Assembly: GCA_040766985.1 (NCBI GenBank)
Contig: JAXGPL010000011.1
Location: 24,095-88,094 of the forward strand
DNA length: 64,000 nt
Direction of reading: 5' to 3'
Source of the DNA: Bacillota bacterium
GTDB lineage: Bacteria; Bacillota; Sulfobacillia; JAUYEG01
The stretch's first letter is position 1, and each line of letters starts with the position of its first letter. Positions 6,410-27,658 of the stretch are shown here, piece after piece. The notes under the pieces are model-generated. The model did not search any database, was not told the origin of the DNA, and worked only from the letters and a program-made list of their open reading frames with translations. Position numbers and translations under genes: made by a program.

Positions 6410-6627
6410 ATGCGCTCAGTAAGAGAATCGGCAGAGTCAAACACTACTTGAGGTTTCCAGTAGCGAATCTTGCACCTGTTTGCGCTGACCGCAGGAACCG
6501 CGTCATCGGGCCGTCGTGAAGGGGAGGCTACCCATGCCATTGCGGTTATGTCAAATCTGCTGCATCCGCAAAGAGAGGCCCGGGTGTCCTGACGGATACC
6601 CGGGCGCACGTTCGCCGCGCGTTATGA

Positions 6628-6927
6628 CTACCTACTGCGGGGTTGGCTCTGGGAGCCCTGCGTCAACTGGTTGCCGATCTTGTAGACGTTGTCCACCTGG
6701 TGCTCGTCCTTCTCCTGTTTGCTGATGAACGTCTTGCAGCACGTCGCCTCACATCGCCCGACCGGGGTGTCAACCTGGCTGATCATGGAGGCGTCCATTC
6801 CGTGGAAGGACTGGGCGCCGACCTGGTCGCCGGTGATGACGATCGACGAAGCCTCGCAGTAGTTGCCCGTCATCCAGTAGTGGCAGTTGCTGACGCTACA
6901 GCGGATCCGTTCCTTGTCCGGGCTCAT
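6628..6927 (-). CDS. DUF1540-family Cys-rich small protein
   Basis: CSVSNCHYW...C.ASSI and CCKTF motifs; AAGGAGG RBS. Confidence 0.8.
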   Translation of the reverse strand: MSPDKERIRCSVSNCHYWMTGNYCEASSIVITGDQVGAQSFHGMDASMISQVDTPVGRCEATCCKTFISKQEKDEHQVDNVYKIGNQLTQGSQSQPRSR

Positions 6928-7049
6928 TTGGTCCCCTCCTTTGGTGGTCTAGGTACGCTGACAGAGCGTCACCAAATCGCAAAATGTAGCTTGCCCAGGA
7001 TGCCGCCTGGCGCCCGCGTGGCGGCGCCGCGATAGGAAACCGCAGTTCG

Positions 7050-8252: not shown

Positions 8253-9932
8253 ATGGATGCCGCGCCGGATCGCCGTACGGCAGGTTTCGGACCATCCGGG
8301 CCGCATCTCGACGTTGAGGCGGTCACTGACCCAGCGTTGCTTGAAACCCTCAGAGTCCTTAAGCCGGACCACTACTATGATCTCCTGCAGGTCGTCGGTT
8401 CCGCCGCGGCAGGCCTCGACCTTGTCGCCCCCGGCCAAGTTCTGGCCCGATTCACGCTGCCCGATGCCGGCGACGCTACGGACACCGCCTCAGAAGATGG
8501 GCATTCAGGCGTCGGCCAGGATTACGACGGCGGCACCCGTGTGCTCGCCCGCACCGCCGGCCATGGCACGGAGTTCGATGCCGAGAGCCTCACGGTTGTC
8601 GCCCGCGCCGCCGGGATCGTCCTGTACGACGGAGAGCAGGTCGGTGTGATGCCGCTGGCGCGCGACGGCCGAGTCGAGGTCGCCGTAAACGCCGACGCGA
8701 GTGAAGCACACGCAACCCTCACCCCGCCGGGGCCGGAAAGCAAGCCGGTCTCGGTCGCCGACGTCGCCCAAGGACTGGCTTCCTCTGGAGTCCGGTTGGG
8801 CGTGGATCAGGCAGCTATTGAGCAGGCCGTAAGCGAGCTTGAGGCGACGGGCCAACGCGTGTGCGCGAAGGTGGCGTCGGGGCGCCGGCCGCAGCCCGGG
8901 ACCGATGGCGCCATCGAGTACCTGGTCGACATCGGAAACCTGCCCGTCGCGGCGGACAGCGGCGACAGGATTGATTTCAAGAACCTCAACATTATCTGCG
9001 GCGTCGAGCGCAACCAGGCTCTCGTCAGGCGAATTCCGGCGACTAAGGGCGTACCTGGGTATACCGTGACCGGGAGGATCCTGCCGGCCAAGGACGGCCG
9101 CGAGGCGCAGCTACCACTGGGTTCAAACGTTCAGGTCGATCCAGGAGACCCGAACGTCCTCCGTTCGGCCATCGACGGCAATCTCAGGGTGGTCCAGGGC
9201 AAGATCGAGGTCAACAAGAGCTTCACTGTCCCAGGGAACGTGGATTACTCCACCGGGCACATCAAGTACGATCATTCGGTGGTCATCCGCGGCGACGTCA
9301 AGGGCGGCTTCAACGTCGAATGTGGTGGGGACCTCGAAGTCAAGGGAGCCGTTGAGGACTGCGGCGTGCGCGCCGGAGGCGGCGTGCTGATCCGCGGCGG
9401 GTTCATGGGCCAGGGGGCGGGGATGATCCGGGCCGGCGGAGCGGTGCGACTTGGCTTCGGCCGCAACCAGACCGTGCAGTGCTCGGGCCCGTTGATCGTT
9501 GAGCGCGAGGCGATCAACATGACCCTCCGGTCGGACGACTCCGTCTCTGTCGCCGGGCTTCTCGTCGGCGGCGAGGTCATGGCGCGCAACCGCATCGAGT
9601 GCCGTATCGCGGGCAACCCCAGCGGTTCGCGAACAAGGCTTGAGGTCGGCGTGGTGTGTGAGCTGGTTCAGGCCGCTGCCGGCCTGGCCAGGGAGATTGA
9701 GGTGATGCGCCGCCGCCACCAGCCCGAACAAGAGGTCGCCGTGCTGGAGCAGCGGCATAAAGCATTGCTCGAGCAAGCCTACGCGATCGGTTCGGCGACC
9801 ATCGTCGTCAAGGAACGAATCAACCCCGGTGTGCTGGTCAAGATCGGAGCGGCCCCGGTTATCAGATTTGCCGAAGAAACCCGCGGCCCCGTCGTATTCA
9901 CCCTTCGTGACGGCGAGGTCAAGATTTCCTAG
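8253..9932 (+). CDS. DUF342/FapA family protein
   Basis: RIDFKNL, GYTVTG, VDYSTGHI and beta-helix repeats typical of FapA. Confidence 0.8.
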   Translation: MDAAPDRRTAGFGPSGPHLDVEAVTDPALLETLRVLKPDHYYDLLQVVGSAAAGLDLVAPGQVLARFTLPDAGDATDTASEDGHSGVGQDYDGGTRVLARTAGHGTEFDAESLTVVARAAGIVLYDGEQVGVMPLARDGRVEVAVNADASEAHATLTPPGPESKPVSVADVAQGLASSGVRLGVDQAAIEQAVSELEATGQRVCAKVASGRRPQPGTDGAIEYLVDIGNLPVAADSGDRIDFKNLNIICGVERNQALVRRIPATKGVPGYTVTGRILPAKDGREAQLPLGSNVQVDPGDPNVLRSAIDGNLRVVQGKIEVNKSFTVPGNVDYSTGHIKYDHSVVIRGDVKGGFNVECGGDLEVKGAVEDCGVRAGGGVLIRGGFMGQGAGMIRAGGAVRLGFGRNQTVQCSGPLIVEREAINMTLRSDDSVSVAGLLVGGEVMARNRIECRIAGNPSGSRTRLEVGVVCELVQAAAGLAREIEVMRRRHQPEQEVAVLEQRHKALLEQAYAIGSATIVVKERINPGVLVKIGAAPVIRFAEETRGPVVFTLRDGEVKIS

Positions 9933-11984: not shown

Positions 11985-12572
11985 CTAGGTAATCTCTCGG
12001 CGGCCGCGGATGAAGCCGCGCAGTTCGGACCAGTGCTTGGCAATCACCGCGACGGCCAGGCCCAGGCCCACAAGGCCATGCAGCGGACTACCGCCGCCGA
12101 TCACGTACATCGCAACCGGGAGCGCCGTGAACCCCAGCACCACAGACGCGTAGCTGTCCTTCAGTAAGGCCAGGCCGACAACGTACGCCACGACGGCGGG
12201 AGCGATCGCCCACGGCATGAGCACGCTGAGGGCGCCGGCCGACGCTCCGATGCCTTTTCCGCCCCTCAACCCGAGCCACGGCATCCAATTGTGGCCCACG
12301 ACAGCGGCAACTGCTGCCGCGCCCATGACCGCCGGGTCGCCCATGTACAGCCGCCCGGCGAGCCAGACAGCCAGAGCGCCTTTACCGAGGTCGGTCAGGC
12401 CGGTTAGGACGCCGGCTGCGGCGCCGACGTTGCGGAACGCATTCATTCCTCCAACGTTACCGCTGCCGACCACGCGGATGTCCTTACCTCCGCCGAGCAG
12501 GCGGGTGTAGAGGTATGCGGACGGAAAGGAGCCGATCAAGTACGCCAGACCTAGATAGCACGCAGGATGCAC
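11985..12572 (-). CDS. plsY: glycerol-3-phosphate acyltransferase PlsY
   Basis: YLIGSFP, DIRVVGSGNVG, GHNW...GGKG motifs; GGAGGTGA RBS. Confidence 0.9.
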   Translation of the reverse strand: MHPACYLGLAYLIGSFPSAYLYTRLLGGGKDIRVVGSGNVGGMNAFRNVGAAAGVLTGLTDLGKGALAVWLAGRLYMGDPAVMGAAAVAAVVGHNWMPWLGLRGGKGIGASAGALSVLMPWAIAPAVVAYVVGLALLKDSYASVVLGFTALPVAMYVIGGGSPLHGLVGLGLAVAVIAKHWSELRGFIRGRREIT

Positions 12573-15150
12573 GATTGGTCACCTCCCCGGGACCTGATTC
12601 CAGTCCGGCCAGGCAGCGCCTTCCCGGCCTCGTCGTCGGGGCAGGGTTGGCGATAGGCGCCCTGAGCGCTGAAGCGGCATGTGCCCCGCTGTGGTCGAAC
12701 CGGCCTTGCCCGGTTGTCACCCCTTGGTTACGATATGCTGTTAGCGGCGTCGCAGTATGCCTGGTGTGGTTCCGGGTCCGCCCACGAAGCGCAAACGTCC
12801 GTTACACACCGGTGGCCGCGGCCGCCGCCGCGGCCCTCTGCGGCCTGGTCCTTGCCCTCGGGACGGCAGAGGCCATCTCGGCATCGCCGTACCGCGCCCT
12901 TGCGCTGGCCGGCGATCGTGAAGCCCGCGTCGACTGCTGGGTAACGGGCGCCGCGCGGCGCGTGGGCGATAGGTGGCTGATTCCGATCCAGGCGGTCGGC
13001 CTAGACGGAGCGCCGGCAGCCGGGCGCCTTGAGGCGGCGATCCCACGTGAGGTGGCGCAGGCGGGCCCGCCGCAGCCGGGCGCCCCCTTGACCCTTCAAG
13101 GCCGGCTGTACTTGCCCGGAGAGCAACTCAATCCGTACGAATCCGACTATCGCCGGGACCTTGCGCGCGAGGGCGTGTGCGCGCGGTGCGACGTCCGTGC
13201 GCTAACGCAGCGATCTGTTGGCCCGGCCACACGGCTGTGGCAACTCGTCCGCCTTCTCCCGGCACGCCTCGCGGGATGGTGCTCGCTCCGGCTCGGCCGC
13301 CTTGTCGAGGCCCATCTTCATGGTGACGAACAGGCCCTGGCGCTGGCGTTTTTGCTTGGCGACCGCACGCAGCTGCGGGAAGCGCCGCTCCAGTCCGACC
13401 TTGAGGCGGCCGGCGGCCTGCACCTCGCGGCGGTCAGCGGGCTTCACGTCGGACTCGTTGCGGGGGCGGTCGCGGCGGCTGCATCGCTCTTGCGGATGCC
13501 GAGGGGCACACGCACCGCAGCCGTTCTGGGCACTGCGTCCTTGTACGCGCTCGTCTCTGGAGCAACGCCCTCGGTCCTGCGGGCCCTGGTGATGGTCGGA
13601 TGCGTGACCTTGTGCCCCAGAAGGCGCCGGGCGGTGGGCCTCAATAGCCTTGGCTGCGCCGCGCTATTGCTGATTGTTCGCAGGCCGCTGATCGCCGGGG
13701 ACGCGGGGTTTCAATTGTCGTTTATGGCAACGCTCGGTATCCTTGCGGCAGCCGCGGGTCCTGTCGCCAAAACGGGCCCGGCTTCCGCGGGTGCCGGGGT
13801 GCGCAAGTTGCGGGGTGTCCTCACGGCTGCGCGGGCGAGCCTGTATGCACAACTTGCGACGATGCCCGTGATGAGCCACTGCTTCTATCGCCTTGCTCCC
13901 TGGGCGCCCATCAACAACCTGGTGCTGCTGCCGCTCGGCGGGGCCTGCATCACGATCACCTTTGCTGCGGCCTGCCTCGGGCTGATCTGGCAGCCGCTGT
14001 TCGGCGTATTCGCCCCCTTGCTCGCCGCTGCGTTACGGATCCTCGCCGCGACCGCTCACTATATGGGGAGGTTCCCCGGGAGCATGTACGTCACAGGGCA
14101 TCCCGGCATTCCAGCATGCGCTCTCAGCGCAGGATTGATGCTTTGGTACCTGCTGTCGGCGGGCGTAACCGGCGGTACGGTGCAGCCGCGCTGGAAACCG
14201 GCAGCCGCCGTTGCGGCGTCGATCTTACTTGTTGTGGTCTATCCGGCGGTCGTGCACCGTCCTCCTGGTGGGCTCGCCGTGTCGTTCTTCGCCGTGGGGA
14301 GACTGCGCGCTGGTGAGGACGGGTCGGACGGCGTCCTCGTCGACTTCGGTCCCCCCGGCGCCGGAGGCGCGCCGGGCCTGGTCGCGCTTTTCCCGCAGCG
14401 TGCTGCCTTACTCCGCGCGACCAGGTGCTTTCCGCAGTTGGCGGTACCTGCTACACACCCTCACGCTGGGATCATCCCGGCGGGCTCGCGGACGCCATGC
14501 GGGCGTACCCGGGCATGCGGGTCGTGACCCGCACAAGGTTCCTCGCGGAGACCGTCACCTCGGCGGAGGGCCTGGAGCCTTCGCCGCTCCCGGCCGCGCG
14601 GATCGTCGCCCTCGACAGGCCCGTCGCCGTCACGCTTCCGGCGGCGGCCGGCGCCGCCGACCGTGGCTCGCCGGGTGGGGCAGGGGCCGCCCAATGCCTT
14701 TTGCGGCTCGAGCTATTCTGGGCGGAGGGTCTTTCCGATGAACTCGACGCCAATGAGCACTGCATCCTGTGTCGGACATATCTCGTCTCCGCCGGTGACA
14801 ACCAACCAATCTCGCAGACGCTATCCGCGCTGTTGGCAGCCGACGCGGGTCTGGAGGCCGAAGCGGCGCTGCTCGCGGCGTCGCCGGGGGTAGCCCTCAA
14901 GGCCGCCTTGCTAAAGGCGGGTCATCACGGGAGCAGCGGATCGAGCGGCGCCGGCTTCCTGGAGCGGGTCGCACCGCTGCTGGCGGTGGTCAGTGTGGGA
15001 CCCAACCGATTCGGGCATCCCGGCCACGATGCCCTCGCACGGCTGCACAGCGGCGGCCGTATTGTCCTCCGCACCGACAGCGATGGCTGGGTCGAGGTCC
15101 GCCTCGGCGGGGCGGAGCTCACATGGCGGGCATTTCACGGGCGTCCGTAG
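12515..15150 (+). CDS. comEC: DNA internalization competence protein ComEC/Rec2 (frameshifted ~14290-14520; start uncertain)
   Basis: HLAAVSGLHV competence domain, GFQLSF; metallo-beta-lactamase-like THPH/WDH and KAGHHGS, VSVGPNRFGHP, RTDSDG split across frames. Confidence 0.85.
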
Positions 15151-15196
15151 GGACAAGCACCGGATCGGGCGAAGAACAACTGCGGAGGTGGGCACA

Positions 15197-16306
15197 GTGG
15201 CCAAGCCCAGGTACTTGAGCTATAAGGGAGCGCGATCGGCCATTGACGCCGGCCGCCTTCACCGGCTGTACGTGATGTGGGGCGACCCGTACCTCGTCGG
15301 CAAGCTGGTGGACATGCTCCGGGCACGGCTCATCTCCCCCGGCGCTGAGGACTTCGATTTCGCGCGTCTTGACGCCGCCGCGACGGCTCCGCTCGAGGTC
15401 ATGGCGGCCGTGCGCGCGGCCCCCTTTGTCTCACCACGGCGGTTGGTGGTCCTTGAGAGGGTCAGGTGCCTCAAGGGGCGTACGCGGGCGCAGCCAACAC
15501 CCGAGGACGAACAGGCGGACGAGGGGCAACCCGCCCCGGGCGGCGATTCCGACTGGGAGCTTGCCCTTGCCGACCCGCCGTCGACGACGTGCCTGGTGGC
15601 TGTCACCGAGGGACAGCCCGACGCCCGGCTGCGCCTGACCAAGGCGCTCGAGCCGCGAAGCCAGTTCGTCGAGTGCCAGGCGACGGGCCGGGACGCACAG
15701 GCGCTCGCGGCGGACATCGTGCGCGAGACGGTCAACCAGTTGGGCATGCGTATGGACTGGCGCGCGCAGAACCTGCTGGTTTCCACGGTCGGCACGGATT
15801 GCGGGCAACTGGTGAGGGAGTTGGAGAAGATCAGGTTATGGGCCCGTGGACGCCAGGTTGGCGAGCGCGACGTGTTGTTGTTGTGTCCCCGCACGGCGCA
15901 GGCGGACATCTGGCAGTTGCTTGATGCGGTGGAGGCCGGGGACGCGGGCGAGGCCCACCGGGTCGTGCGCGCATCGCTTGCGCGCGGGGAGAGTCCCGTG
16001 GCGCTGGTTGCTTCGCTTGCCAGCCAGATCCGGATCATGGCCAGGGCCAAGGAACGGGCTGATTCGGGGGTGCCGCCGCGGGCACTGCCGGGGGTTCTCG
16101 GGGCAAACAAGTTCTGGGTGGAGCAGTCGCTCCGGCGGGCGCGCCTGTTCTCGCAGGCCGCGTTGTACAAATCGCTGCGTGAGCTCGCGCGTATCGATCT
16201 GGGGATTAAGACAGGGTCGCTTGACCCGGAAACCGCAGTCGAGGCATTCGTCCTCGCCCTCTGTGTCGCCAGGGGCGCGGGGCAAAGCAAAAGGGCCCGG
16301 GATTGA
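15197..16306 (+). CDS. holA: DNA polymerase III delta subunit
   Basis: GGAGGTG-GTG start; PF..RRLV, ELEKI, DLGIKTG motifs; synteny comEC-holA-rpsT. Confidence 0.85.
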   Translation: MAKPRYLSYKGARSAIDAGRLHRLYVMWGDPYLVGKLVDMLRARLISPGAEDFDFARLDAAATAPLEVMAAVRAAPFVSPRRLVVLERVRCLKGRTRAQPTPEDEQADEGQPAPGGDSDWELALADPPSTTCLVAVTEGQPDARLRLTKALEPRSQFVECQATGRDAQALAADIVRETVNQLGMRMDWRAQNLLVSTVGTDCGQLVRELEKIRLWARGRQVGERDVLLLCPRTAQADIWQLLDAVEAGDAGEAHRVVRASLARGESPVALVASLASQIRIMARAKERADSGVPPRALPGVLGANKFWVEQSLRRARLFSQAALYKSLRELARIDLGIKTGSLDPETAVEAFVLALCVARGAGQSKRARD

Positions 16307-16315
16307 CCCGGGCCC
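16289..16315 (-). terminator. intrinsic terminator for rpsT (possibly bidirectional)
   Basis: GGGCCCGGG-N5-CCCGGGCCC hairpin followed by a T-run on the minus strand. Confidence 0.65.
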
Positions 16316-16334
16316 ACGTTAGCGGCAGACCTAC

Positions 16335-16625
16335 CTACGCCTGAGGCGCCTCGTTGTTAACCGCCTGTTTGGAAGCCAAAAGCTTTGCCAGCCTCGACTT
16401 GCGGCGGGATGCGGTGTTGCGGTGCAGGACGCCCTTGCTGACTGCCTTGTCCAGCAACCGGGATGCGCTGCGGAGGTGCTCAGCCGCGGCTGCCAGATCG
16501 TCTGCCTCGCAAGCCGTACGGACCTCACGGACAGCGCCCTTGACTGTGGATTTGATCTGAAGGTTGCGTGCCTGGCGGATCCGGTCCTTCTTGGCTGACT
16601 TGATGGCAGACTTGATGTTGGCCAC
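16335..16625 (-). CDS. rpsT: 30S ribosomal protein S20
   Basis: (M)ANIKSAIK...LDKAVSKGVLHRNTASRRKSRL. Confidence 0.95.
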   Translation of the reverse strand: MANIKSAIKSAKKDRIRQARNLQIKSTVKGAVREVRTACEADDLAAAAEHLRSASRLLDKAVSKGVLHRNTASRRKSRLAKLLASKQAVNNEAPQA

Positions 16626-16676
16626 TGAAATCCCTCCATAGACATAAAACGGGCCGGTCGGAGGACCGACGGTCAG

Positions 16677-16705
16677 ATAATACCATGCAGGCGCGGTGCG
16701 AGCAA
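16677..16705 (-). promoter_or_regulatory. sigmaA promoter of rpsT
   Basis: minus strand TTGCTC-N17-TATTAT with extended -10 TG. Confidence 0.6.
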
Positions 16706-16739
16706 CACCGCCCGCCACATAGCCCGCCATATCGTTGTT

Positions 16740-16769
16740 GCATAGGCCTTGCCAAGCGTGGAAAGCATA
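16740..16769 (+). promoter_or_regulatory. sigmaF/G-like forespore promoter
   Basis: GCATA-N15-GGAAAGCATA versus consensus GYWTA-N15-GGnnAnAHTR. Confidence 0.45.
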
Positions 16770-16804
16770 TGCGAGCAACTGATTCGCAAAGTGGAGGTTG
16801 GACC

Positions 16805-17140
16805 ATGAGAGGCTGGTTTGGCACGATCATCCGGTTCATCGTTTCTGCGTTGGTGCTTCTGTTTGTGGGCTTTTTAGTCCCCGGGTTCGAGGTCGCAGGG
16901 TTCTGGAACGCCCTTCTCGCCGCCGTGGTCATCGCTATCGTCGGGTATCTCGTGGAGCTGGCCTTGGGGCACCGGGTTTCACCGCAGAGCCGGGGCGTGG
17001 TCGGTTTCATAACGGCGGCCGTCGTCATCTGGTTGGCCCAGTTCGTTGTGCCGGCGATGAGCGTCACTCTGATCGGCGCCCTTCTGGCGTCCTTCATTAT
17101 CGGTCTCGTGGATGCAATTGTCCCAACCGAGTTACGCTAA
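16805..17140 (+). CDS. phage-holin-family (4-TM, YvlD-like) membrane protein
   Basis: four short TM segments, PGFEVAGFWNALLAAVVI motif; GGAGG RBS. Confidence 0.75.
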   Translation: MRGWFGTIIRFIVSALVLLFVGFLVPGFEVAGFWNALLAAVVIAIVGYLVELALGHRVSPQSRGVVGFITAAVVIWLAQFVVPAMSVTLIGALLASFIIGLVDAIVPTELR

Positions 17141-17273
17141 GCACAGCCCGCTTCGGCGGGTGTGAACCTTACTCCCTCCCCCTCTTGTCCCGGCCGGCAA
17201 AACGGCCGGGAACTTTTTTGCTCAACTGGCATAGGCTTGCTACTGTCAGTCCTTCGTTTTCCGGAGGTGCGCC

Positions 17274-18659
17274 TTGGCACAGCTATCTATCGGCGGGCCG
17301 AAGCCGCGGCGGGCGGTGCTGCTTGTTGCCTACGTCGTACTCCTTTCGCTCGCGGCGCTCGCGGTATTGGACATCGGTTCGCTGTTCATGCCGGGCTCGA
17401 TCCCGGCGTCCTCGTCCGGCAGCAGTGGTTCCGACCGGCCGGACGTGGTCGACCCGCGGTCGCCGGCAGCCGGAATCGTCAGGCGTTGGATGGACATCTT
17501 CGGCAGGGACGGCCTGAAGATAATCCTCGAACTGGTGATTCCCGGCCTGCGGCCGGCCGTGCCGGTGCAGGGCCCGGGAGGCATGGTATGGCAGGGCAGG
17601 CAAGGGCCCGACCTGTTTGGCTATGCCCTTCGCACCTTCACATCGATCACCCCGGGCGATCCCGGGTCGCTGCTCGCGGCCCAGATTACGGGCCTGCGCA
17701 CAGTGGCGATGGCGGCGAGGGGCACCGTCGAGATCACACCGGACGCACCCGGCGAGGGCGAGTCTTGGACACCGCCTGCGTCCGGCGAGGGATGGCAGGG
17801 TGACGCCTCCTCCGGGGGCAACTCAACGAGCGGCATACCGGAGATGCCGGCCGGCGGCGGATCGGAGACGGGCGCCGGCGGCTTAGGAATCATCGACTGG
17901 GGTCCGGCAACCGCCCCTGTCGTGGCGGTGTACCACAGCCACGCGATGGAGTCTTATCTGCCATGCGTTAAGATGGTCGGCGCCGGCACAACCGGCAAGA
18001 TGGACGCCGAGGAGGCCTTCTCCGACGACCCGGAGATCACGGTCGTCCGCGCGGGCCAGGAACTGGCGGAGGTCCTGGCCAAGCAGTTCGGGATACCGAC
18101 CATCCATTCGCGGCGGTTTCACGATTCGGGCGGCAGGCTCGGGGCGTACGTTCAGTCTGCCGAAACCGTCGAGCGCTTGCTCAATCAATATCCCTCCCTG
18201 CGCGTATTGATCGACGTGCACCGTGACGCGCCGCGCCGCGAACGCACAACGGCGGTCGTCAACGGGCAGAGCGTGGCGCGCATTCTACTCCTGGTCGGGT
18301 CCGACGTTAAGCTTGCTCACCCCAACTGGGAGAGCAACTACGGCTTTGCGCTGGCCCTCCACCAGGCGATGGAAAACCTCTATCCCGGCCTGTCGCTCGG
18401 GATCATGGTCAAGGAGTCCAGGTACAACCAGCACTACCTGCCGCACGCTATGCTCGTGGAGATGGGCGGTGTGGACAATTCGATGGAGGAGGTGCTGCGG
18501 TCGACGAGGATGTTCGCCACCGCCCTGGTGGCGGTGATGCGTGCTGACCCGACGCTCGTGATTCCCCGTACCGGTGGCGTGACCTGCGGTAGCTGGAAAC
18601 CTCTCCGGCAGGCCCCCTTCCTTGGATATCAATGGCTGCCGGTGCTATGGTGGGCTTGA
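17274..18659 (+). CDS. spoIIP: stage II sporulation protein P (amidase/endopeptidase)
   Basis: N-terminal TM; YHSHAMESY, IDVHRDA, RYNQH...LVEMGG.DN motifs. Confidence 0.9.
   Translation: MAQLSIGGPKPRRAVLLVAYVVLLSLAALAVLDIGSLFMPGSIPASSSGSSGSDRPDVVDPRSPAAGIVRRWMDIFGRDGLKIILELVIPGLRPAVPVQGPGGMVWQGRQGPDLFGYALRTFTSITPGDPGSLLAAQITGLRTVAMAARGTVEITPDAPGEGESWTPPASGEGWQGDASSGGNSTSGIPEMPAGGGSETGAGGLGIIDWGPATAPVVAVYHSHAMESYLPCVKMVGAGTTGKMDAEEAFSDDPEITVVRAGQELAEVLAKQFGIPTIHSRRFHDSGGRLGAYVQSAETVERLLNQYPSLRVLIDVHRDAPRRERTTAVVNGQSVARILLLVGSDVKLAHPNWESNYGFALALHQAMENLYPGLSLGIMVKESRYNQHYLPHAMLVEMGGVDNSMEEVLRSTRMFATALVAVMRADPTLVIPRTGGVTCGSWKPLRQAPFLGYQWLPVLWWA
18622..18651 (+). promoter_or_regulatory. sigmaA-like promoter of the hrcA operon
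   Basis: TTGGAT-N18-TATGGT with extended -10 TG, just upstream of CIRCE. Confidence 0.45.
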
Positions 18660-18686
18660 TTAGCACTCCGCATCCCCGAGTGCCAG
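18660..18686 (+). promoter_or_regulatory. CIRCE element (HrcA operator)
   Basis: TTAGCACTC-cgcatcccc-GAGTGCCAG (consensus TTAGCACTC-N9-GAGTGCTAA) upstream of hrcA. Confidence 0.92.
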
Positions 18687-18748
18687 CCGCGTCGAGCTGA
18701 CCCGGTTGGCTCATCGCCATCACAACGCTCTTCTGTGGAGGGAGATCC

Positions 18749-19780
18749 GTGCCGCTCAACCGGCGGAGGAGCTTGATTCTCAAAGCCGTCGTCGAAGAGC
18801 ACGTTCGCAGCGGGCAGCCCGTCGGCAGCAGCCAGATCGTCAGGCACTATGGCCTTCAGGTCTCGCCTGCGACAGTCCGCAACGAGTTGGTTAAGCTCGA
18901 AGACGACGGATACCTCACCCAACCGCACACCTCTGCGGGCAGGACGCCGTCCGACCTGGGCTATCGCTTTTACGTCGATAACCTCCTTCCGTCGTCCGAG
19001 CCGCTCGCCGCCGATGAGCAACTGTTTCGCGGATATCTCGCCAACTGCGGCCACGACGTCCGCAACGCCGTGCGGTCAACCGCACGGTTTCTGGCGGATG
19101 TGACCTCATACATCGCAGTAGTGCTTGCGCCTGACGTAGGCATGACGCAGATCCGCCAACTGCACATGCTTCCGGTTTCACCGGGGCAGGCCCTGATGGT
19201 TGTCGTCCTCGAGAACGGAGTCGTCCAGCATCGCCTGATGGATCTGCCGAGCGGGCTCGCCCGGTCGGACCTCGAACACCTCTCCCGCGAGTTGCAGACC
19301 GCTCTGGCGGGGTGCACAGCGGATGACCTGCCCGGAGCGGTGGGCCGCCTCTGGCGCTCGAGTCTGGCGCGCTACGGCGACGCGCTGGAGCGGGCGACCG
19401 TCGCGCTGATCGATGTGCTCAAAGCCGGCGGGCCCAATGGCGACAGGTTGTACCTCGGCGGCACATCCAACATACTTAACCTGCCGGAGTTCCGCGATGT
19501 GGAGAGGCTGCGCCGGGTGCTCAGCCTCCTGGAGCGCGAGGCGTCGATGTTCGATCTGCTCGTCGAGCGGGCTGCGGAAGGCGGCGTGACGGTGACGATC
19601 GGTGCGGAGAACCGCGCGGCGGAGATCCAGGCCTGTTCACTGGTCACCACGACCTACGTTCTGCCCGGCGGCGGCAGGGGGATCGTCGGCCTGCTCGGGC
19701 CAACCCGAATGGACTACGGTCGGGTCGTTGCACTGCTGGGGTTGGCTGGCTGCCACCTCGACCAGGTCTTCTTGGAATGA
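18749..19780 (+). CDS. hrcA: heat-inducible transcription repressor HrcA
   Basis: SPATVRNEL..LE..GYLTQPHTSAGR, GPTRMDY. Confidence 0.95.
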   Translation: MPLNRRRSLILKAVVEEHVRSGQPVGSSQIVRHYGLQVSPATVRNELVKLEDDGYLTQPHTSAGRTPSDLGYRFYVDNLLPSSEPLAADEQLFRGYLANCGHDVRNAVRSTARFLADVTSYIAVVLAPDVGMTQIRQLHMLPVSPGQALMVVVLENGVVQHRLMDLPSGLARSDLEHLSRELQTALAGCTADDLPGAVGRLWRSSLARYGDALERATVALIDVLKAGGPNGDRLYLGGTSNILNLPEFRDVERLRRVLSLLEREASMFDLLVERAAEGGVTVTIGAENRAAEIQACSLVTTTYVLPGGGRGIVGLLGPTRMDYGRVVALLGLAGCHLDQVFLE

Positions 19781-19792
19781 CGGCGGCTCCGG

Positions 19793-19819
19793 CGGCCTTC
19801 TCCCGGTGGGAGAAGGCCG
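19793..19819 (+). other. perfect 12-bp hairpin between hrcA and the chaperonin gene (mRNA processing/stabiliser or attenuator)
   Basis: CGGCCTTCTCCC-GGT-GGGAGAAGGCCG. Confidence 0.55.
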
Positions 19820-19846
19820 GCATTGTTTTGTCTAAGGGGTGTGTCA

Positions 19847-21430
19847 ATGAGCGTTAAGCAGGCGGCACACGGCAGCGAAGTAGATGAGCGGCTGGCCGCG
19901 CTGAGCACCAATGTCAACGCGGTGCGGGCAATCGCTTCGGCTGTTGAGGGCACGATCGGCCCCAAAGGTCTTAACACGATGCTCGTCGACCGGTTCGGCG
20001 ACGTGACCATCACCAACGACGGCATCACGATCCTTGAGAAGATGGAAGCCTCACACCCGGCGGCGCGCCTCGTGATCAACACCGCCAAGGCCCAGGAAGA
20101 CGAAGTCGGCGATGGAACCACTACGGCAACGATTATGGCCGGGGCGCTACTTGCCGCGGGGTTCAACCAGGTGGTCAAAGGAGTGCCTGTGACGAGGGTT
20201 ATCGAGGGCGTCAAGCTCGGCGTGGAACGGGCGGTCGAGGCCATCTCCTCGCGCGCCCAGCAGGTGACCGGACTCGACGATCCCCGGTTGTACCAGGTCG
20301 CCCTGATCGCCGGGCGCGGCAACCGCGACATCGCCCAACTGGTTGTGGAGGCCGCCCGGCTGACGGGCAAGGACAAGCTGACCGAAAACGGCTTCAAGCT
20401 TGCCGATACCGTGATTGCGGAGGAACGGGCCGGCAATGAGGTGTTCCTCGGGACGATCGTCGATAAGGAACCGCTTAACGATCAGATGCCCAAAACCCTG
20501 TCCGACGTCAAGCTGCTCGTGATCGACGATGCCCTCGAGCCGGACGAAGTCGAGGACGAGGCGCTCGCGACGGAGGCCGGTTTCCGCAAGCTGATGGAGA
20601 ACCGCGAGCAATTCCGTACAAACCTCGGCAAGTTAGTCGACCTTGGCGTCAAGTGCATCGTCGTGGACCGCAGTGTGGACGACGTTGCGGAGGAGGTCCT
20701 GACGGACGCAGGTGTGATGGTGCTGCGCCGGGTGACGTCCCGCGAGTGGCGGCGTGTCGCGGAGCACTGCGGCGCGAGGCCCGTCAAGCGTCCGGCGCTG
20801 CGGCGCGAGCCCGGCGACCTCGAACGCTTTCTCGGGCGCGCGGCGCGGGTGTGGCAGGACGAGAAGCTCGAGCACGTGAGGGTCGAAGGTGGTACCGCCA
20901 AGCCCATGGCGACTATCCTGGTTGGTGCGGCGACCCGCGAGGTGGTCGCGGAGCGGGAACGGATCGCCAAGGACGCCGCGGGCGCAGTGCAGGCCGCGGT
21001 TACCGGTGGGTTGGTTGCCGGCGGCGGCGTCGCGGAGCTTGCGGCTATCCCGGCTCTGCGGGCTGCCCGCGGCGGGGTCCGCGGGATGGCCGCCTACGGC
21101 CTCGACTGCGTCGAGGAAGCCTTGCGGCGGCCGCTTGCCCAGATCGTGCAGAACGCCGGTTTCAATGCACTGGAAAAGGTCGGCGAGGTCGAGGCCATCC
21201 ACGCCCGCGACGGCCGGGCAACGGTGGGTATCGATTGCGATACCGGCGAGACCGCGGATATGCTCGAGCTTGGGGTCGTCGACCCCGTGGCCGTTAAGAT
21301 CCATGCGCTGCGCGCGGCCGGGGAAATCGCCGAGGCGATCCTGCGGATCGACACAATCATCCGCAAGCGCGAGGAATCGCCGGATGGAGCAGGCGCGGCC
21401 GCAGGATTGCCCGACCTTCATCGCGACTAG
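19847..21430 (+). CDS. thermosome-like TCP-1/cpn60 chaperonin (group III-type)
   Basis: GTIGPKG, ITNDGITIL, EVGDGTTT, ERERIAKDA, AGGG, VVDP..VK, ILRID motifs of group II/III type; no GGM tail; no groES adjacent. Confidence 0.88.
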   Translation: MSVKQAAHGSEVDERLAALSTNVNAVRAIASAVEGTIGPKGLNTMLVDRFGDVTITNDGITILEKMEASHPAARLVINTAKAQEDEVGDGTTTATIMAGALLAAGFNQVVKGVPVTRVIEGVKLGVERAVEAISSRAQQVTGLDDPRLYQVALIAGRGNRDIAQLVVEAARLTGKDKLTENGFKLADTVIAEERAGNEVFLGTIVDKEPLNDQMPKTLSDVKLLVIDDALEPDEVEDEALATEAGFRKLMENREQFRTNLGKLVDLGVKCIVVDRSVDDVAEEVLTDAGVMVLRRVTSREWRRVAEHCGARPVKRPALRREPGDLERFLGRAARVWQDEKLEHVRVEGGTAKPMATILVGAATREVVAERERIAKDAAGAVQAAVTGGLVAGGGVAELAAIPALRAARGGVRGMAAYGLDCVEEALRRPLAQIVQNAGFNALEKVGEVEAIHARDGRATVGIDCDTGETADMLELGVVDPVAVKIHALRAAGEIAEAILRIDTIIRKREESPDGAGAAAGLPDLHRD

Positions 21431-21460
21431 TCACAGGGCTCGGGTTATGTGAGGTTTGAG

Positions 21461-22696
21461 ATGGCCAACGACCAGGATTACTACGAGTTGCTCGGCGTAA
21501 GCCGCGACGCGTCGGAGGATGAGATCAAGCGCGCCTTCAGGCATCTGGCGAGGCGTTACCACCCGGACGCCAACCCCGGTGACCCCACCGCCGAGGAGCG
21601 GTTCAAGAAGATCAACGAGGCGTACGAGGTCTTGTCCGACCCGCAGAAGCGTGCTACGTACGACCGTTTCGGCAGGGCTGGGCTTGGCGGCCCGGGCGGT
21701 GCGCCAGGGCCCGGTGGAGGGTTTGCGGGCTTCGAGGACATCTTCGACATGTTCTTCAGCGGCTTCGGCGGCGGCAGGCCCCAGGCCAGGCCGACCGGGC
21801 CGATGCGCGGCCCCGACCTGGAGATGGCCCTGGAGATCGAGCTTGAGGAAGCCGCTGTGGGACTGGAGCGGGAGATCGAGATCAGCCGCATTGAGTCCTG
21901 CAATATCTGCGGCGGCAACGGCGTCCGGCCGGGCTCGCGTCCCGAGCGGTGTACTGTCTGCCGCGGCACGGGGCAGGTGACAGCCTCACAGAGCACCATT
22001 TTCGGCCGGATCATGACGACGCACACGTGCGAGGCATGCGGCGGGCGCGGTTTCGTCGTCACGGACCCGTGCCCGGAGTGCGGCGGGCGAGGGATGGTCC
22101 GGCGGGTGCGTAAGGTCACGGTCAGCATCCCGGCGGGGGTTTCCGACGCCGGCAGGCTTCGCCTGCCCGGCCAGGGACAGGGCGGCATCAACGGTGGGCC
22201 GGCCGGCGACCTGTACGTGGACGTCCGGGTCAAACCGCATCCCGTCTTCACCAGGCGCGGGCTCGACATCGTCGCCGAAGCGCCTGTCAGCTACATCCGC
22301 GCAGCCCTCGGCGGCACGATCGAGGTTGAAACCCTGTTCGGCCGCGAGCAGTTGGCCCTCCCGCCCGGCACGCAGCCCGGCGACGTCTTCGCCATCCGCG
22401 GCAAGGGGATGCCCGAGGTGCGCGGGCGCAAGCGCGGCGACCACCACGTCTTGGTCAAGGTGCAGATCCCCGACAGGCTCACCCCGCGGCAGCGCGAGTT
22501 GCTGACCGAACTTGCCCGCGAGAGCGGCGAACCGCTTCCCGGCGAGAAGCCCCCCTTGGCGGCGACCAAGCCCGGTGGCAGGCGTCCCGGCGTTGCCCGC
22601 GCCGCCCGTCCCGGCAAGCGCAAGGGCGGCAAGAAGGGCCTGTTCGACCGTGTCAAGGAGGCCCTAACGGGAGAGCCCGATGACCAACTTGACTAG
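21461..22696 (+). CDS. dnaJ: molecular chaperone DnaJ
   Basis: J-domain HPD, G/F region, four CxxCxGxG repeats. Confidence 0.95.
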
Positions 22697-23600
22697 CCCC
22701 GGCCCCGATCCCGCGCCGGAGGACGACCGGGTCTGGTGGGAGATCACCGTCAGGGGGGGGCCCGCCTCGCTTGACCTCTCAGGCGAAGCCCTGCGGGATA
22801 TCGTGCCGGCAGGATTCATTGAAACCGCCGACGGCATCACCGCATACCTACCTGACAGGGAGACCGCCGAGAAGGCCGCTGCGGCCGTCACGGCGGCAGG
22901 CGCCGTATCCGCTCAGCTGCGGCCTGTGGCGGAGGCGGAGTGGGGCGTCTGGCGCAGGGCGTTTCGGCCCGTCGCAGTCGGTGAACGGCTGCGGATCGTG
23001 CCGGTTTGGGACGCCGCGGTCCCCGCGGTCTCCGCGGGGCTGGTCGCCCACGACGCACCGGGCGACGTCACAGTCGTCATTGAGCCCGGGCTGGCCTTCG
23101 GCACGGGCGACCACCCCACTACGGCGGCCTGCCTGCAGCTTCTTGAACGACTGGTGCGTGAAGGAGCTGAGGTGCTCGACGCTGGTACGGGATCGGGCAT
23201 CCTCGCGATCGCTGCCGCGCTTCTGGGTGCCGGCCGCGTGGTCGCGGTAGATATCGACCCGGTCGCGTGCCGGTCCGCAACGGCCAACATCGCGCTCAAT
23301 CCGGGTGCGCGGGAGAAGGTTTCCGTGTGCTGTCGGGACATCGCGGAACTTGCGGAGGCGGAGGGTGGACCGGTCTTCGACATTATCGTCGCCAATCTCA
23401 CCAGCGATGTCGTCATCGCCCTGCTTCCGACGCTGCTCCAGAGCCTCGTCGCTGGCGGCCGGATGGTGTTGTCGGGTATCAGCGTCGAGCGCGAAGGCGA
23501 CGTTATGCTCGCGCTGGACGCGGCAGGACTCGCCCCCGTCGACCTGGCGAGGGAACGCGGTTGGCTGACGGTATGCTGTGAACGGGGGGGAGGACTGTGA
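22680..23600 (+). CDS. prmA: ribosomal protein L11 methyltransferase
   Basis: [36 protein letters not shown]. Confidence 0.9.
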
Positions 23601-24420
23601 GCGCCGGGCCCAACGGGGTACACCGGATCGTCCTCACGGCAGAGGAGATCAGGGGAAACCGTGTTCTCCTGACCCGGGAAAACACCCACCATGTCCGCGA
23701 GGTTCTGCGCCTCCGGCATGGCGCCGTCCTGCGCGGGCTGGTGCCGCTCACCAGCGAGCCGGCGAGCGGCGGATACGACCTTATCCTGCGCATCGACGAG
23801 ATGCGCTCAGGGCGGCAGGCCTGTGAAGTTGGGGGCCATATCGAGCTGGGTACGGAGCCGCCGCTGGCCGTCACGGTCTGCCAGGGGCTTACGCGCTCGG
23901 AAAGGTTTGAGTATTCGCTCCAAAAGTGCACCGAGATCGGCGCGCGGGGCTTCCGGCCGGTCCTGACGGCACGCAGCATCGTCCGCCTGGATGCGTTACG
24001 CCACCTCCAGCGGCTGGGCCGCTGGCGCCGGATCGCAGAGGAAGCAGCCCTCCAGTCGGGGCGGGCGCGCATCCCGGAGGTGAGCGAGGTGGTCAGGCTC
24101 GGTGAGTTGTGCGATCTTGCCACGGCCTCGCCCGCCCAGCTGATGCTCGTCGCCTACGAGCAGGAGACCACCCCGCTTCGCGACGTGCTCCGCCGCGCCA
24201 CCACGAACGGCAGGCCGCAGACGGCTCCCGTGGTTGTCGGCCACGAGGAGACGACCTCGAACGCGGGGAAGTGGGGCTACGCTGGCTGCGGCCGGTTTCA
24301 TCCCGGTGAGCCTTGGCCCGCGCATCCCTGCGGACGGAAACCGCCGGTCCCGTGATCCTTTCGTTACTGCTCTACGAGCTGGCCGACCTGGGTGGCGGCT
24401 GCTGGGTGGCAGTCCCGGTG
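23597..24420 (+). CDS. rsmE: 16S rRNA m3U1498 methyltransferase (frameshifted C-terminus; end approximate)
   Basis: HH..VLRL, QKCTEIG, EAALQSGR; SLGPRI and LRTETA appear in shifted frames. Confidence 0.85.
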
Positions 24421-25886
24421 ACTGAGCAGGGTGCGGCCGACCGATCCACGCGCCGCGGCACGCGGGCAGGCCTTCCTGACCCTCGGCTGCAAGGTCAACC
24501 AGTACGATTCGGAGGCGATGGCCGGGGCCCATCCGGGCGCTAGGGTGGGAAGTGATCGAGCGGCCCGAGGACCTGCTCGGCGGACCGGACGTAATCGTCG
24601 TCAACAGCTGCGCGGTGACGGCGCGCGCCGCAGCCAAGAGCCGCCAGGCCGCGCGCGCGGCAGCGCGAAAGCACCCGGGCAGCCGCGTCGCGTTGGTGGG
24701 CTGCTACCCCCAGGTCTTCCGCGATGAAGCCCGTCAGGTCGAAGGCGTTGCGGGCATCGCCGGCACGGGCAGGCATTGCGCGCTAAGCCTGTTCGAGTCC
24801 ATCCTGCGCGGGCCCAGGCCTGCGGGCAATCCGGACGTAACGCGGCAGGAGCCCCAGGAGGCTCCCCTCGACTTCCCGGCGACATTCGAGAACCTTCCGG
24901 CAGCGCCGGCGGCGGGCAGGGTCCGCGCGTTTCTCAAGGTGCAGGAAGGCTGCCAGATGAACTGCGCCTACTGTCTGGTGCCGCAGGCGCGCGGTCCGCA
25001 ACGGTCGTGCCTGCCGGAAGCCGCTCTGGCCGCGGCCCGCTCGCTGTTGCGACACGGGGCGCGTGAGCTCGTGTTGACAGGTATCCACCTCGGCGCTTAC
25101 GGGCGCGACCTCGCCGCCGGGGAGCGGCCCGCCGCCACGGAACGGCCCGCCGCCGCAGAGCGGCACATCGCCGGCGAATCGCTCGCCTGCCTGGTCACGG
25201 CCTGCCTAGGCCTGCCCGGCCTGGTGCGCCTCCGTCTCTCCTCGATTGAACCCACCGACATCGACGAAGGCCTGTTGAGGGTATTGGCGTCGGACCCGCG
25301 GGTCTGCCGTCACCTGCATATCCCGCTTCAGAGCGGTTGCGACAGGACGCTCGCAGCGATGCGGCGCCATTACGACACCGCCGGCTATGCGGCGGTCGTC
25401 AGGCGGGCGCGTTCCGCCCTGCCCGGTCTCGCCGTGAGCACCGACGTTATGGCGGGGTTTCCAGGAGAAACCCGTGCCGACTTCGACGCCACCGATGCAT
25501 TCATCCGGGAGATGGGCTTTATGCGGCTTCATGTCTTTCCGTATTCGCCCCGGCCTAACACGGTTGCGGCGACGTTCGGCGGGCAGGTGCCGGGAAAGGA
25601 GCGCGAGAGGCGGGCCCGGCAGTTGATTGCGACCGGCAGGGAACTGGCGGCATCCTATAACCGTCAGTTGCTAGGCAGGGAGACGGGAGTGCTTCTGGAA
25701 AAAAACCCTGTACCTGCGGATATAGCGGGGTTTCCGGGCTATGCAAACGAAGGCCTGACACCGGATTACGTCCGCGCCGCAGTGTCTTCCACGCAACCGT
25801 ATCCGGCGGGCACGCTCGTGATGATCCGTGTGACGGGGGCCGACGCCGACGGCGTGACCGGTCAGGTGAGCGCACAACCGTCCTGA
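24418..25886 (+). CDS. mtaB: tRNA t6A37 methylthiotransferase MtaB (indel near 24530; start approximate)
   Basis: TLGCKVNQYDS, NSCAVT, radical SAM CQMNCAYC, HIPLQSG, GFPGET. Confidence 0.88.
25113..25166 (+). repeat. 3 x 18-bp in-frame tandem repeat inside mtaB
   Basis: gccgccggggagcggccc/gccgccacggaacggccc/gccgccgcagagcggcac = AAGERP AATERP AAAERH. Confidence 0.8.
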
Positions 25887-25977
25887 CTAGACCATACGCT
25901 GTGATACGCATGGGACGACCGGACCGTTGCGGCTTTTGGGCTAGAGAAGGACCGGGCAATCGACAGGGAGTGGGCGA

Positions 25978-27219
25978 ATGGGCGAAGGCAAGCGAGGACG
26001 GCTGCGCGTTGGCGTGGTGTTTGGGGGGCGTTCGGGTGAGCACGAGGTGTCGCTGCTCTCGGCGGCCTCGGTGATGGCGGCGCTCGACCCGGCGCAGTAC
26101 GAGGTCGTCCCGATCGGCATTACCAAAGAGGGCAGTTGGCTAGCCGGGCCGGCCGCGCTCGAACGGCTGCGTGCGGCAGCGATGCTGCCGGCCAGCGGAG
26201 CGATGAAGGCCCTGGCTGCGGCCAACCCAAGGTTCGATCCCGCAGATGCGCACGAAGTCGGACTGCTGCCCGACCCGAGCAGGCGTGGGCAGCTGGAACG
26301 CCTCACACCAGGAGCGGTGCGCGAGGCCGGCGGCGGTGAGGCCGGCGGCGGCACGGTGACGCTGGCCACGGTGGACGTCGTGTTCCCGGTGTTGCACGGG
26401 CCGTTCGGCGAGGACGGCACGATCCAGGGGCTGCTTGAGTTGGCAGGGCTGCCGTACGTCGGCGCCGGCGTCTTGGGATCGGCCCTCGGTATGGACAAGA
26501 TCGCGATGAAGGACGTCTTCCGCGCCCGCGGGCTGCCGGTTGTGCGGTACATCGGGCTCACGCGCGCGGCAATCGAAGCCGACCCGCCGGCGGCTGAACG
26601 GCCGGTGCTGGACCAGCTCAGGCTGCCGGTCTTTGTCAAGCCCGCCAATCTCGGCTCAAGCGTCGGTATCACCAAAGTCCGCGCGCCAGACGAACTCGGC
26701 AAGGCCCTTCGCATCGCGGCCAGGTACGACCGGCGCGTCATCGTCGAGGAGGGCGCCCCTAACGCCCGCGAGATCGAGTGTAGCGTTCTCGGCAACGACT
26801 TTCCCGAGGCCTCTGTGCCCGGCGAGGTCATTCCCAGCCGCGAGTTTTACGACTATTGCGCCAAGTACATCGACGACGATTCGAGCCTGGTCATCCCGGC
26901 CGAGCTTCCGGCGGAGGTAGCGCAGGAAGTGCGCCGGATCGCCGTCGCGGCCTTTCTGGCGCTGGACTGCGCAGGGATGGCGAGGGTTGACTTCTTCGTC
27001 GGCCGCGACGACAACCGCATCACACTCAACGAGCTCAATACCATCCCCGGCTTTACCACGATCAGCATGTACCCCAAGCTCTGGCAGGCCAGCGGCATCA
27101 GCTACGAGGAGCTACTCAAACGGCTGATCGCGTTGGCGATCGAGCGGCACCGCGACCGGCAGCGCAGCAAGACAACATATTCGCCGTTCGAGGAACCCGG
27201 CGGGCGGTATGACGGCTGA
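25978..27219 (+). CDS. ddl: D-alanine--D-alanine ligase
   Basis: [49 protein letters not shown]. Confidence 0.93.
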
Positions 27220-27658
27220 GGTAGCGCGCGCAGACCACGATACCGAGCCGGCGTACCGCTTCGACTTGCCCCTCAGTCCTGGCGTCTTCATCAGGCGTGC
27301 CGGCCGCTTCACAATGGAAGCCCGTCTCTCCGACGGCACTCCCGGCCTGCTGCATCTCCCCAACGGCGGCCGTCTCCAGACCGTCCTTCTTCCCGGCGCC
27401 CGGGTCCTCTACCGGCCGCGCAACCGCGGACCACGCAAGGGAGAAGGTCCTGCTCGCGTCACAGACGGCAGGGCCACGCTCGTCGAGGTCGCCGGGGATG
27501 TCGGCTGGGTCACGGTGGACGCAACGCTCCCCGCAAGAGCCCTGTCGCACATCCTGCGGGCGGCCGCCGGGGCCGGCCTGAAGGTCGTGGCATATCACCT
27601 CGAGGCGTCGCCGGATCGAATCCGCCTCGCGCGGCGGCCGCCGGTGGAGTTGTCCTGA
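27209..27658 (+). CDS. sfsA: SfsA-like protein lacking the nuclease core (internal deletion or pseudogene)
   Basis: F.RR..RF, HLPNGGRL..LLPG N-terminal OB-fold and an SfsA-like tail (G.KVVAY...I.L...PV.L), only 149 aa. Confidence 0.6.
   Translation: MTAEVARADHDTEPAYRFDLPLSPGVFIRRAGRFTMEARLSDGTPGLLHLPNGGRLQTVLLPGARVLYRPRNRGPRKGEGPARVTDGRATLVEVAGDVGWVTVDATLPARALSHILRAAAGAGLKVVAYHLEASPDRIRLARRPPVELS

Follow-up and report, generated by a model that had tools for sequence, protein, structure and literature searches.

The hrcA locus and its control elements

The DNA analysed here (the window) is a stretch of 64,000 nucleotides from a genome of the class Sulfobacillia (Bacillota). It carries a heat-shock locus in which the repressor gene hrcA, preceded by the operator CIRCE (controlling inverted repeat of chaperone expression), is followed by a gene for a group III chaperonin (cpn) and by dnaJ, with neither grpE nor dnaK beside them. 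The locus is a lineage-wide gene rearrangement, not an Hsp70-free folding machine. The order was confirmed as CIRCE, hrcA, a 12-bp hairpin, cpn, a gap of 30 nucleotides (nt), a type I dnaJ, prmA, rsmE and mtaB, and the features of the locus are as follows.

18622..18651, plus strand: possible sigma-A promoter, read by eye within the spoIIP 3' end (TTGGAT, 18 nt, TGC-TATGGT with an extended -10)
18660..18686, plus strand: predicted CIRCE operator (HrcA binding site), TTAGCACTC-N9-GAGTGCCAG, departs from the consensus at two positions of the right arm
18749..19780, plus strand: hrcA, heat-inducible repressor, 343 amino acids (aa); Pfam HrcA E 1.3e-56; TIGR00331 273.5 bits, cut-off 197.2
19793..19829, plus strand: G+C-rich hairpin in the hrcA-cpn spacer, T-rich tail included, terminator-like or a processing element
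19847..21430, plus strand: group III chaperonin (thermosome-like, built-in lid), 527 aa; ATG at 19847, stop TAG at 21428-21430
21461..22696, plus strand: dnaJ, type I Hsp40; Pfam DnaJ, DnaJ_CXXCXGXG and DnaJ_C; TIGR02349 425.6 bits, cut-off 377.2
22680..23600, plus strand: prmA, ribosomal protein L11 methyltransferase; Pfam PrmA E 3.6e-58; 17-nt overlap with dnaJ
23597..24355, plus strand: rsmE-type RNA methyltransferase; Pfam Methyltrans_RNA E 1e-25; 4-nt overlap with prmA
24552..25886, plus strand: mtaB-like radical-SAM methylthiotransferase; Pfam Radical_SAM and UPF0004

Every reading frame between 18749 and 25886 is unbroken and of normal length. The spoIIP gene ends at 18659 and CIRCE begins at the next base, 18660. 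Between the cpn stop and the dnaJ ATG (21461) there are 30 nt, which include a GAGG ribosome-binding site. Over the wider region 12515-27219 the genes are, in order, comEC, holA, rpsT (minus strand), a small membrane protein gene, spoIIP, hrcA, the gene of the Cpn60/TCP-1 family protein, dnaJ, prmA, rsmE, mtaB and ddl. Neither lepA nor hemN is found between spoIIP and hrcA. The LepA_C and HemN_C domains had no match anywhere in the genome assembly (G000), which is 84.8% complete, so that absence from the organism is not implied; they are probably missing through incompleteness. The original prediction, which was made from the window alone, had given the same gene order and coordinates, with a 30-bp gap that leaves out grpE and dnaK, a dnaJ start at 21461 and no lepA or hemN upstream, and each of these elements was found at its place.

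A search of the whole 2.36-Mb assembly with up to three mismatches found two CIRCE sites only, the one before hrcA and, on contig C34, a second site ahead of groES-groEL that fits the consensus perfectly; the reversed-pattern control gave no match. Two features of an HrcA/CIRCE class I regulon are present, with an HrcA gene above its model cut-off and a 9-N9-9 repeat before both operons. A consensus promoter scan over 18300-27400 found no promoter at its threshold. The stem-loop of the hairpin (19793-19819) has 12 pairs, nine of them G-C, with a 3-nt loop, and is followed by GCATTGTTTT. The 81-nt fold has a z-score of -2.25, and 2 of 200 shuffled sequences fold equally well. The cpn start codon lies 27 nt past the hairpin stem, which leaves no space for a separate cpn promoter. 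Comparable hairpins were counted by eye in about 13 of the 22 hrcA-cpn spacers that were folded.

Identity of the chaperonin

The window chaperonin matches the solved chaperonin of Carboxydothermus hydrogenoformans (Ch-CPN; PDB 5x9u) over residues 8-509 with 451.8 bits (E 2.4e-134). Its highest-scoring solved relative is the ancestral construct 9rwq (639 bits), which we take to be the group III ancestral construct, and the best natural group II chain reaches about 227 bits. The NCBIfam thermosome, CCT and GroEL models all score under their cut-offs (thermosome 299.7 bits, cut-off 671; NF009487, the best GroEL model, 188.2 bits, cut-off 352). The group III loop reads as expected in the alignments: there are 2+3+1 = 6 gap positions against the group II ancestor 9rwp near query residues 155-163 and none against 5x9u at the position of the nucleotide-sensing loop, where R157 of the window protein pairs with R155 of Ch-CPN. 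This arginine is invariant in 29 aligned chaperonin sequences. Passages of An et al. (2017, PMC5635000) define group III by an alpha6-alpha7 loop that is shorter by six residues than its group II counterpart, the nucleotide-sensing loop, and by Arg155 replacing the conserved Lys.

The lid region (Ch-CPN 223-263) aligns to the window chaperonin without gaps, and the sole cpn10 gene of the genome adjoins groEL on another contig. In a tree built without a group II or group I outgroup, the window chaperonin falls within the sequences recovered with it as query, including those of Sporomusa, Heliobacterium and Tepidanaerobacter. As to operon context, group III genes are expected inside hrcA-grpE-dnaK-dnaJ; here hrcA and dnaJ flank cpn, and grpE and dnaK are absent. 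Operon context is a feature of most group III members and not a property of the protein. Judged by its sequence, the window chaperonin is thus a Carboxydothermus-type, GroES-independent group III chaperonin, for which lid function and ATP-dependent foldase activity as a double ring are predicted. The assignment to this group and the lack of a groES neighbour had both been proposed before and are upheld by the 5x9u match, the short loop with its arginine, the gap-free lid and the position of cpn10.

A second operon with the Hsp70 system

The genome search for dnaK, grpE and groEL/ES found all of them. There is one full dnaK, on contig C34 (NF001413, 988 bits), in an operon with the order MerR/HspR-like regulator gene, dnaK, grpE, a second dnaJ without zinc finger (dnaJ2) and clpB. 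Matches to GrpE are confined to the place directly downstream of this dnaK. The original prediction had offered as its first reading that dnaK and grpE lie elsewhere, and had named an ordinary grpE-dnaK operon elsewhere as the finding that would reduce the locus to a simple rearrangement; a full dnaK followed by grpE is what C34 carries.

The HAIR operator (HspR-associated inverted repeat) has the motif CTTGAGT-N7-ACTCAAG. A search with the N7 spacer and up to four mismatches upstream of 18 regulator-dnaK loci gave one weak match. By eye, a near-consensus promoter of the TTGAC...TATAAT type can be read in most of these 18 upstream regions (e.g. 9620-9700 on the minus strand of L007, the C34 dnaK locus), and no common HAIR repeat is seen in them.

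Distribution in the class

We sampled 41 genomes of the class, the window's own included. The chaperonin is present in 23 of them, and 20 chaperonin loci were obtained (own included). Nine of these loci are hrcA-cpn-dnaJ, seven have a small open reading frame (ORF) between cpn and dnaJ, and four are hrcA-cpn-grpE-dnaK. As for the other three chaperonin genomes, the coordinates put the dnaK of G015 about 1.6 kb past cpn, and the remaining two stop at a contig edge. An Hsp70-family match was found in all 41 genomes. Among the 16 genomes without grpE-dnaK at the chaperonin, 15 carry elsewhere a second-type dnaK that is 73-84% identical to that of the window's genome, and the 16th (G038) shows dnaK fragments only, on other contigs. 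In 18 of 23 genomes the gene immediately upstream of the second-type dnaK is MerR/HspR-like. In genomes that retain grpE-dnaK behind hrcA, DnaK is 62-68% identical to that of the window's genome, and a second-type copy is absent. No second-type dnaK was found by tblastn in the four cpn-grpE-dnaK genomes; G012 has a further, untyped Hsp70-family match.

The genomes without the chaperonin but with a second-type dnaK have either hrcA-dnaJ (G002, G020, G027) or hrcA-grpE-dnaJ (G007, G008, G035, G034), and in G007 and G034 the regulator operon is without grpE while the HrcA operon retains it. One GrpE locus was found in each readable case, in either operon. Since chaperonin-less relatives have likewise lost dnaK or grpE-dnaK, the chaperonin did not replace grpE-dnaK, and the loss goes with the presence of the second dnaK locus, not with the chaperonin. 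The description of the locus as having a chaperonin "in place of" grpE-dnaK therefore misstates its history. The chaperonin tree, built from 55 rows by a quick method, does not resolve the base of the class, so the losses of grpE-dnaK cannot be counted; the starred branches force only one change.

Two irregular genomes were noticed in this sample. In G023 (contig C245, locus L028) the chaperonin match is split into residues 1-38 and 39-510, about 860 nt apart on the same strand, which suggests an insertion in the gene (mobile element, intron or intein). In G014 (L048, L131) there are two second-type dnaK genes, one behind a MerR/HspR-like gene and the other, long-branched, in a dnaK-dnaJ-clpB arrangement in which no regulator was seen.

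A DnaK remnant between cpn and dnaJ in relatives

The small ORF of the seven relatives encodes a protein of 83-108 residues that is 27-43% identical to subdomain IIB of the DnaK ATPase domain (mini-IIB). The seven ORFs, all between cpn and dnaJ, are located as follows.

L011, 3092-3346, plus strand: mini-IIB ORF
L014, 3068-3349, plus strand: mini-IIB ORF
L012, 3110-3433, plus strand: mini-IIB ORF
L015, 3129-3455, plus strand: mini-IIB ORF
L020, 1207-1461, minus strand: mini-IIB ORF
L025, 1190-1468, minus strand: mini-IIB ORF
L028, 1196-1456, minus strand: mini-IIB ORF

In L014 the ORF shares 11 nt with the end of cpn and 8 nt with the beginning of dnaJ, and in L025 its ATG overlaps the cpn stop. 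The structural model of mini-IIB (predicted local distance difference test score 90.8) superposes on lobe IIB of DnaK with a template-modelling score of 0.85-0.87 and a root-mean-square deviation of about 1.1 Å over 85 columns. A collection of 5.8 billion proteins contains 25 mini-IIB cluster representatives of 79-111 residues, for three of which the sole name is "Hsp70 family protein" and for two "molecular chaperone DnaK". The dN/dS ratios are 0.25-0.77 with synonymous sites saturated (pS 0.5-0.7), which gives a hint of purifying selection on these genes. Mini-IIB marks the point from which dnaK was excised, and it seems to have been kept as a gene. The window holds no trace of it.

Group III loci and second-type DnaK outside the class

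We surveyed species-representative genomes and found the layout cpn-(grpE)-dnaK-dnaJ at 31 of 36 group III loci, including those of Sporomusa, Heliobacterium, Tepidanaerobacter and Peptococcaceae. The two cpn-dnaJ loci in the survey are both identical to class genomes, G001 and G006. The remainder consists of two Armatimonadota loci with hrcA-cpn-grpE and no dnaK in the flank, and of one WS1 locus with the chaperonin alone. The regulator-dnaK pair was found in nine genomes of other classes, from 29 loci read in a 301-genome sample of the phylum. The second-type DnaKs group as a single clade (support 100) in the DnaK tree. Common descent of all class DnaKs was not rejected by the approximately unbiased (AU) test (p = 0.67).

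Origin of the locus

We propose, at a probability of about 0.85, that the locus is what remains, under HrcA/CIRCE control, of the classical Bacillota operon hrcA-(group III cpn)-grpE-dnaK-dnaJ-prmA-rsmE-mtaB, from which grpE and dnaK have departed, and that the complete Hsp70 system lies in the second, MerR/HspR-headed operon. HrcA bound to the two CIRCE sites would repress groES-groEL and hrcA-cpn-dnaJ, possibly with prmA and rsmE, and protein-folding stress would derepress both operons. The hairpin after hrcA may uncouple the amount of repressor from the downstream genes and so set the ratio of repressor to chaperone message. The group III chaperonin would fold its clients without GroES, and type I DnaJ, a product of the shared transcript, would work in trans with the DnaK encoded elsewhere. 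The outcome would be a set of heat-shock genes divided between two repressors, with the chaperonin in the HrcA half.

Several points weigh against this proposal. Co-transcription, the role of the hairpin and induction by heat are inferred. The C34 regulator has a MerR helix-turn-helix domain (E 4.5e-18), but its best NCBIfam match, HspR, scores 79.4 bits, under the cut-off of 105. A HAIR search with spacers of N5-9 and up to three mismatches gave matches at 2 of the 18 loci (0.56 expected), none of them in the window's genome. Finally, the deposited assembly has several frameshifts that run from the C-terminal tail of dnaK through the whole of grpE into the N-terminal half of dnaJ2 (L007 ~6300-7450, ~1.1 kb), and at face value these would leave the cell without a nucleotide-exchange factor.

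The frame breaks were compared with other sequence data by aligning contigs from four public runs to the C34 dnaK locus. Contigs of three runs (X1, X2 and X3, from two studies) share one alternative version of L007 ~6325-7450, with at least 12 insertions or deletions listed and 18-53 gap positions per contig. In the flanks, which hold the regulator gene, dnaK and clpB, the same contigs show 0-2 differences from the assembly per 0.9-1.8 kb. At two comparable sites, 6566 and 6593, the contig changes go toward the intact ortholog of G001, a genome of the same family in which grpE (202 aa) and dnaJ2 are unbroken. The unbroken pieces of GrpE are 71% identical to GrpE of G001, and the neighbouring HspR-like regulator and DnaK are 81% and 84% identical. 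The breaks in grpE and dnaJ2 are most likely a local assembly error in an unpolished stretch. If they were taken as real, from the several breaks between L007 ~6300 and 7420, grpE and dnaJ2 would be pseudogenes in this strain, DnaK would work without an exchange factor, and the DnaJ of the HrcA operon would be its only J-protein. We consider this very unlikely, because the identity of the GrpE pieces is in the range of the neighbouring genes and gives no sign of decay, the contigs of the three runs agree on one version with near-perfect flanks, and the confinement of the errors to about 1.1 kb is in keeping with poor local polishing. Local errors of this kind elsewhere in the assembly might raise the suspicion that the cpn-dnaJ junction is itself a misassembly that dropped grpE-dnaK. 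That is hardly conceivable: the same direct junction occurs in eight other independently assembled class genomes, including that of the same-family G001, the only dnaK and grpE of the genome sit in a different and conserved context, and the frames on both sides of the junction are intact.

A different question is whether the second operon is native. An HspR-type dnaK-grpE-dnaJ-clpB operon might have been acquired from another lineage, after which the native grpE-dnaK was deleted from the HrcA operon. The second-type clade is split by a branch of support 100 from every HrcA-operon DnaK, those of the class included; second-type DnaKs are no closer to the HrcA-operon DnaKs of the class (62-68% identity) than to those outside it; the regulator-dnaK pairs in the nine genomes of other classes encode DnaKs that are 78-85% identical; and the seven mini-IIB relics indicate that dnaK was lost by deletion on the spot, not by removal of the intact gene. 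However, the tree in which all class DnaKs stand together scored 10.8 log-likelihood units better, in line with the AU result, and the DnaK tree holds no sequences of other phyla, so that no donor can be named. We regard such a foreign replacement as possible but unlikely.

DnaJ and the chaperonin

The original prediction had also suggested an Hsp70-uncoupled module, in which DnaJ works directly with the lidded chaperonin. In such a module DnaJ would pass unfolded clients straight to the group III chaperonin, and the pair would have evolved as one unit once the operon had lost dnaK. In its favor, cpn and dnaJ remain neighbours under HrcA in 16 of the 20 class chaperonin loci after the departure of dnaK, with a gap of only 30 nt in the window, and a partnership of the chaperonin with the Hsp70 system has already been suspected from operon context in passages of PMC5635000 and PMC5220055. 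The window DnaJ has a J-domain with the HPD motif, a glycine/phenylalanine-rich region, four CxxCxGxG motifs and the C-terminal domains, and all eight cysteines of the zinc motifs are invariant in 21 sequences. To our knowledge, the only established role of an HPD J-domain is the stimulation of an Hsp70. A complex predicted from the chaperonin (527 aa, 29-row alignment) and DnaJ residues 1-360 (21-row alignment) returned "no answer" with a score of 0.00 in both runs, which weighs neither for nor against binding. The module finds no support in these results and is very improbable, since the window DnaJ retains HPD and is built like an ordinary type I protein, 15 of the 16 genomes concerned have a full dnaK at another place, and hrcA-dnaJ adjacency occurs equally in chaperonin-less relatives, which lost grpE-dnaK too. 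The adjacency is thus inherited operon order and not a coupling specific to the chaperonin.

In a related idea, the lasting partner of the group III chaperonin would be the HrcA regulon with DnaJ, not DnaK. Selection would have held cpn and dnaJ together once dnaK was gone, in seven relatives with mini-IIB retained between them, and DnaJ (or mini-IIB, where a genome has it) would pass clients, or else a regulatory signal, straight to the chaperonin. We give this only a slim chance. If true, it would give bacteria an equivalent of Hsc70-CCT coupling in which no full Hsp70 is required in cis.

Comparison with known systems

The locus of C. hydrogenoformans and other Bacillota (hrcA-cpn-grpE-dnaK-dnaJ; Ch-CPN, 5x9u/5x9v) has a chaperonin of the same group directly behind hrcA and CIRCE. 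Unlike it, the window has no grpE and dnaK between cpn and dnaJ. Passages of PMC5635000 and PMC5220055 place the group III genes in the DnaK operon "with one exception" and use this to propose a partnership with DnaK; the layout of the exception may or may not match that of the window. The passages of the group III chaperonin papers that were searched contain no description of an hrcA-cpn-dnaJ layout without dnaK. The published case for the partnership rests largely on operon sharing, and this link is broken in 16 of the 20 class chaperonin loci. Because cpn stays with hrcA and dnaJ where dnaK is gone, the neighbourhood argument points to shared HrcA control, and possibly to DnaJ, at least as much as to DnaK.

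The second comparison is with the split arrangement of Actinobacteria (CIRCE-hrcA-dnaJ2 and, under HspR/HAIR, dnaK-grpE-dnaJ1-hspR). In mycobacteria, passages of PMC13435591 describe CIRCE-hrcA with dnaJ2 downstream and an HspR-controlled dnaK-grpE-dnaJ operon. The window's genome likewise has a dnaJ in the hrcA operon and a separate dnaK-grpE-dnaJ operon with a MerR-family regulator. It differs in that the regulator gene comes first and not last, clpB ends the operon, no HAIR was found, and the HspR model stays under its cut-off; moreover, the window has a group III chaperonin between hrcA and dnaJ, and the host is a spore-gene-bearing (spoIIP), high-G+C member of Bacillota. Such a lineage thus resembles Actinobacteria in having its heat-shock genes split between two regulators. 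The locus is a gene-order variant of well-known parts and combines two known layouts.

In Thermus thermophilus the operon order is dnaK-grpE-dnaJ-dafA-clpB. It shares dnaK, grpE, a J-protein without zinc finger and clpB with the C34 locus. The latter begins with a regulator gene, and DafA was not seen in it; we take the likeness as a lead only.

The flanking genes of the B. subtilis operon hrcA-grpE-dnaK-dnaJ-prmA-yqeU-yqeV are presumably in the same order as in the window, with comEC, holA, rpsT and spoIIP upstream and dnaJ-prmA-rsmE-mtaB downstream. In contrast to B. subtilis, the window is without grpE-dnaK and lepA-hemN and has the chaperonin in addition. Both have a structured spacer after hrcA that could uncouple the repressor from the downstream genes. 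In B. subtilis, passages of PMC11313650 attribute the uncoupling of HrcA from the rest of the operon to cleavage between hrcA and grpE (RNase Y), and similar cleavage may occur at the window hairpin. The upstream flank of the window has a further gene between rpsT and spoIIP, at 16685-17140 on the plus strand. Its product, a small membrane protein, belongs to the Phage_holin_4_2 family (E 1.2e-17), and the gene lies at the position where B. subtilis presumably has gpr.

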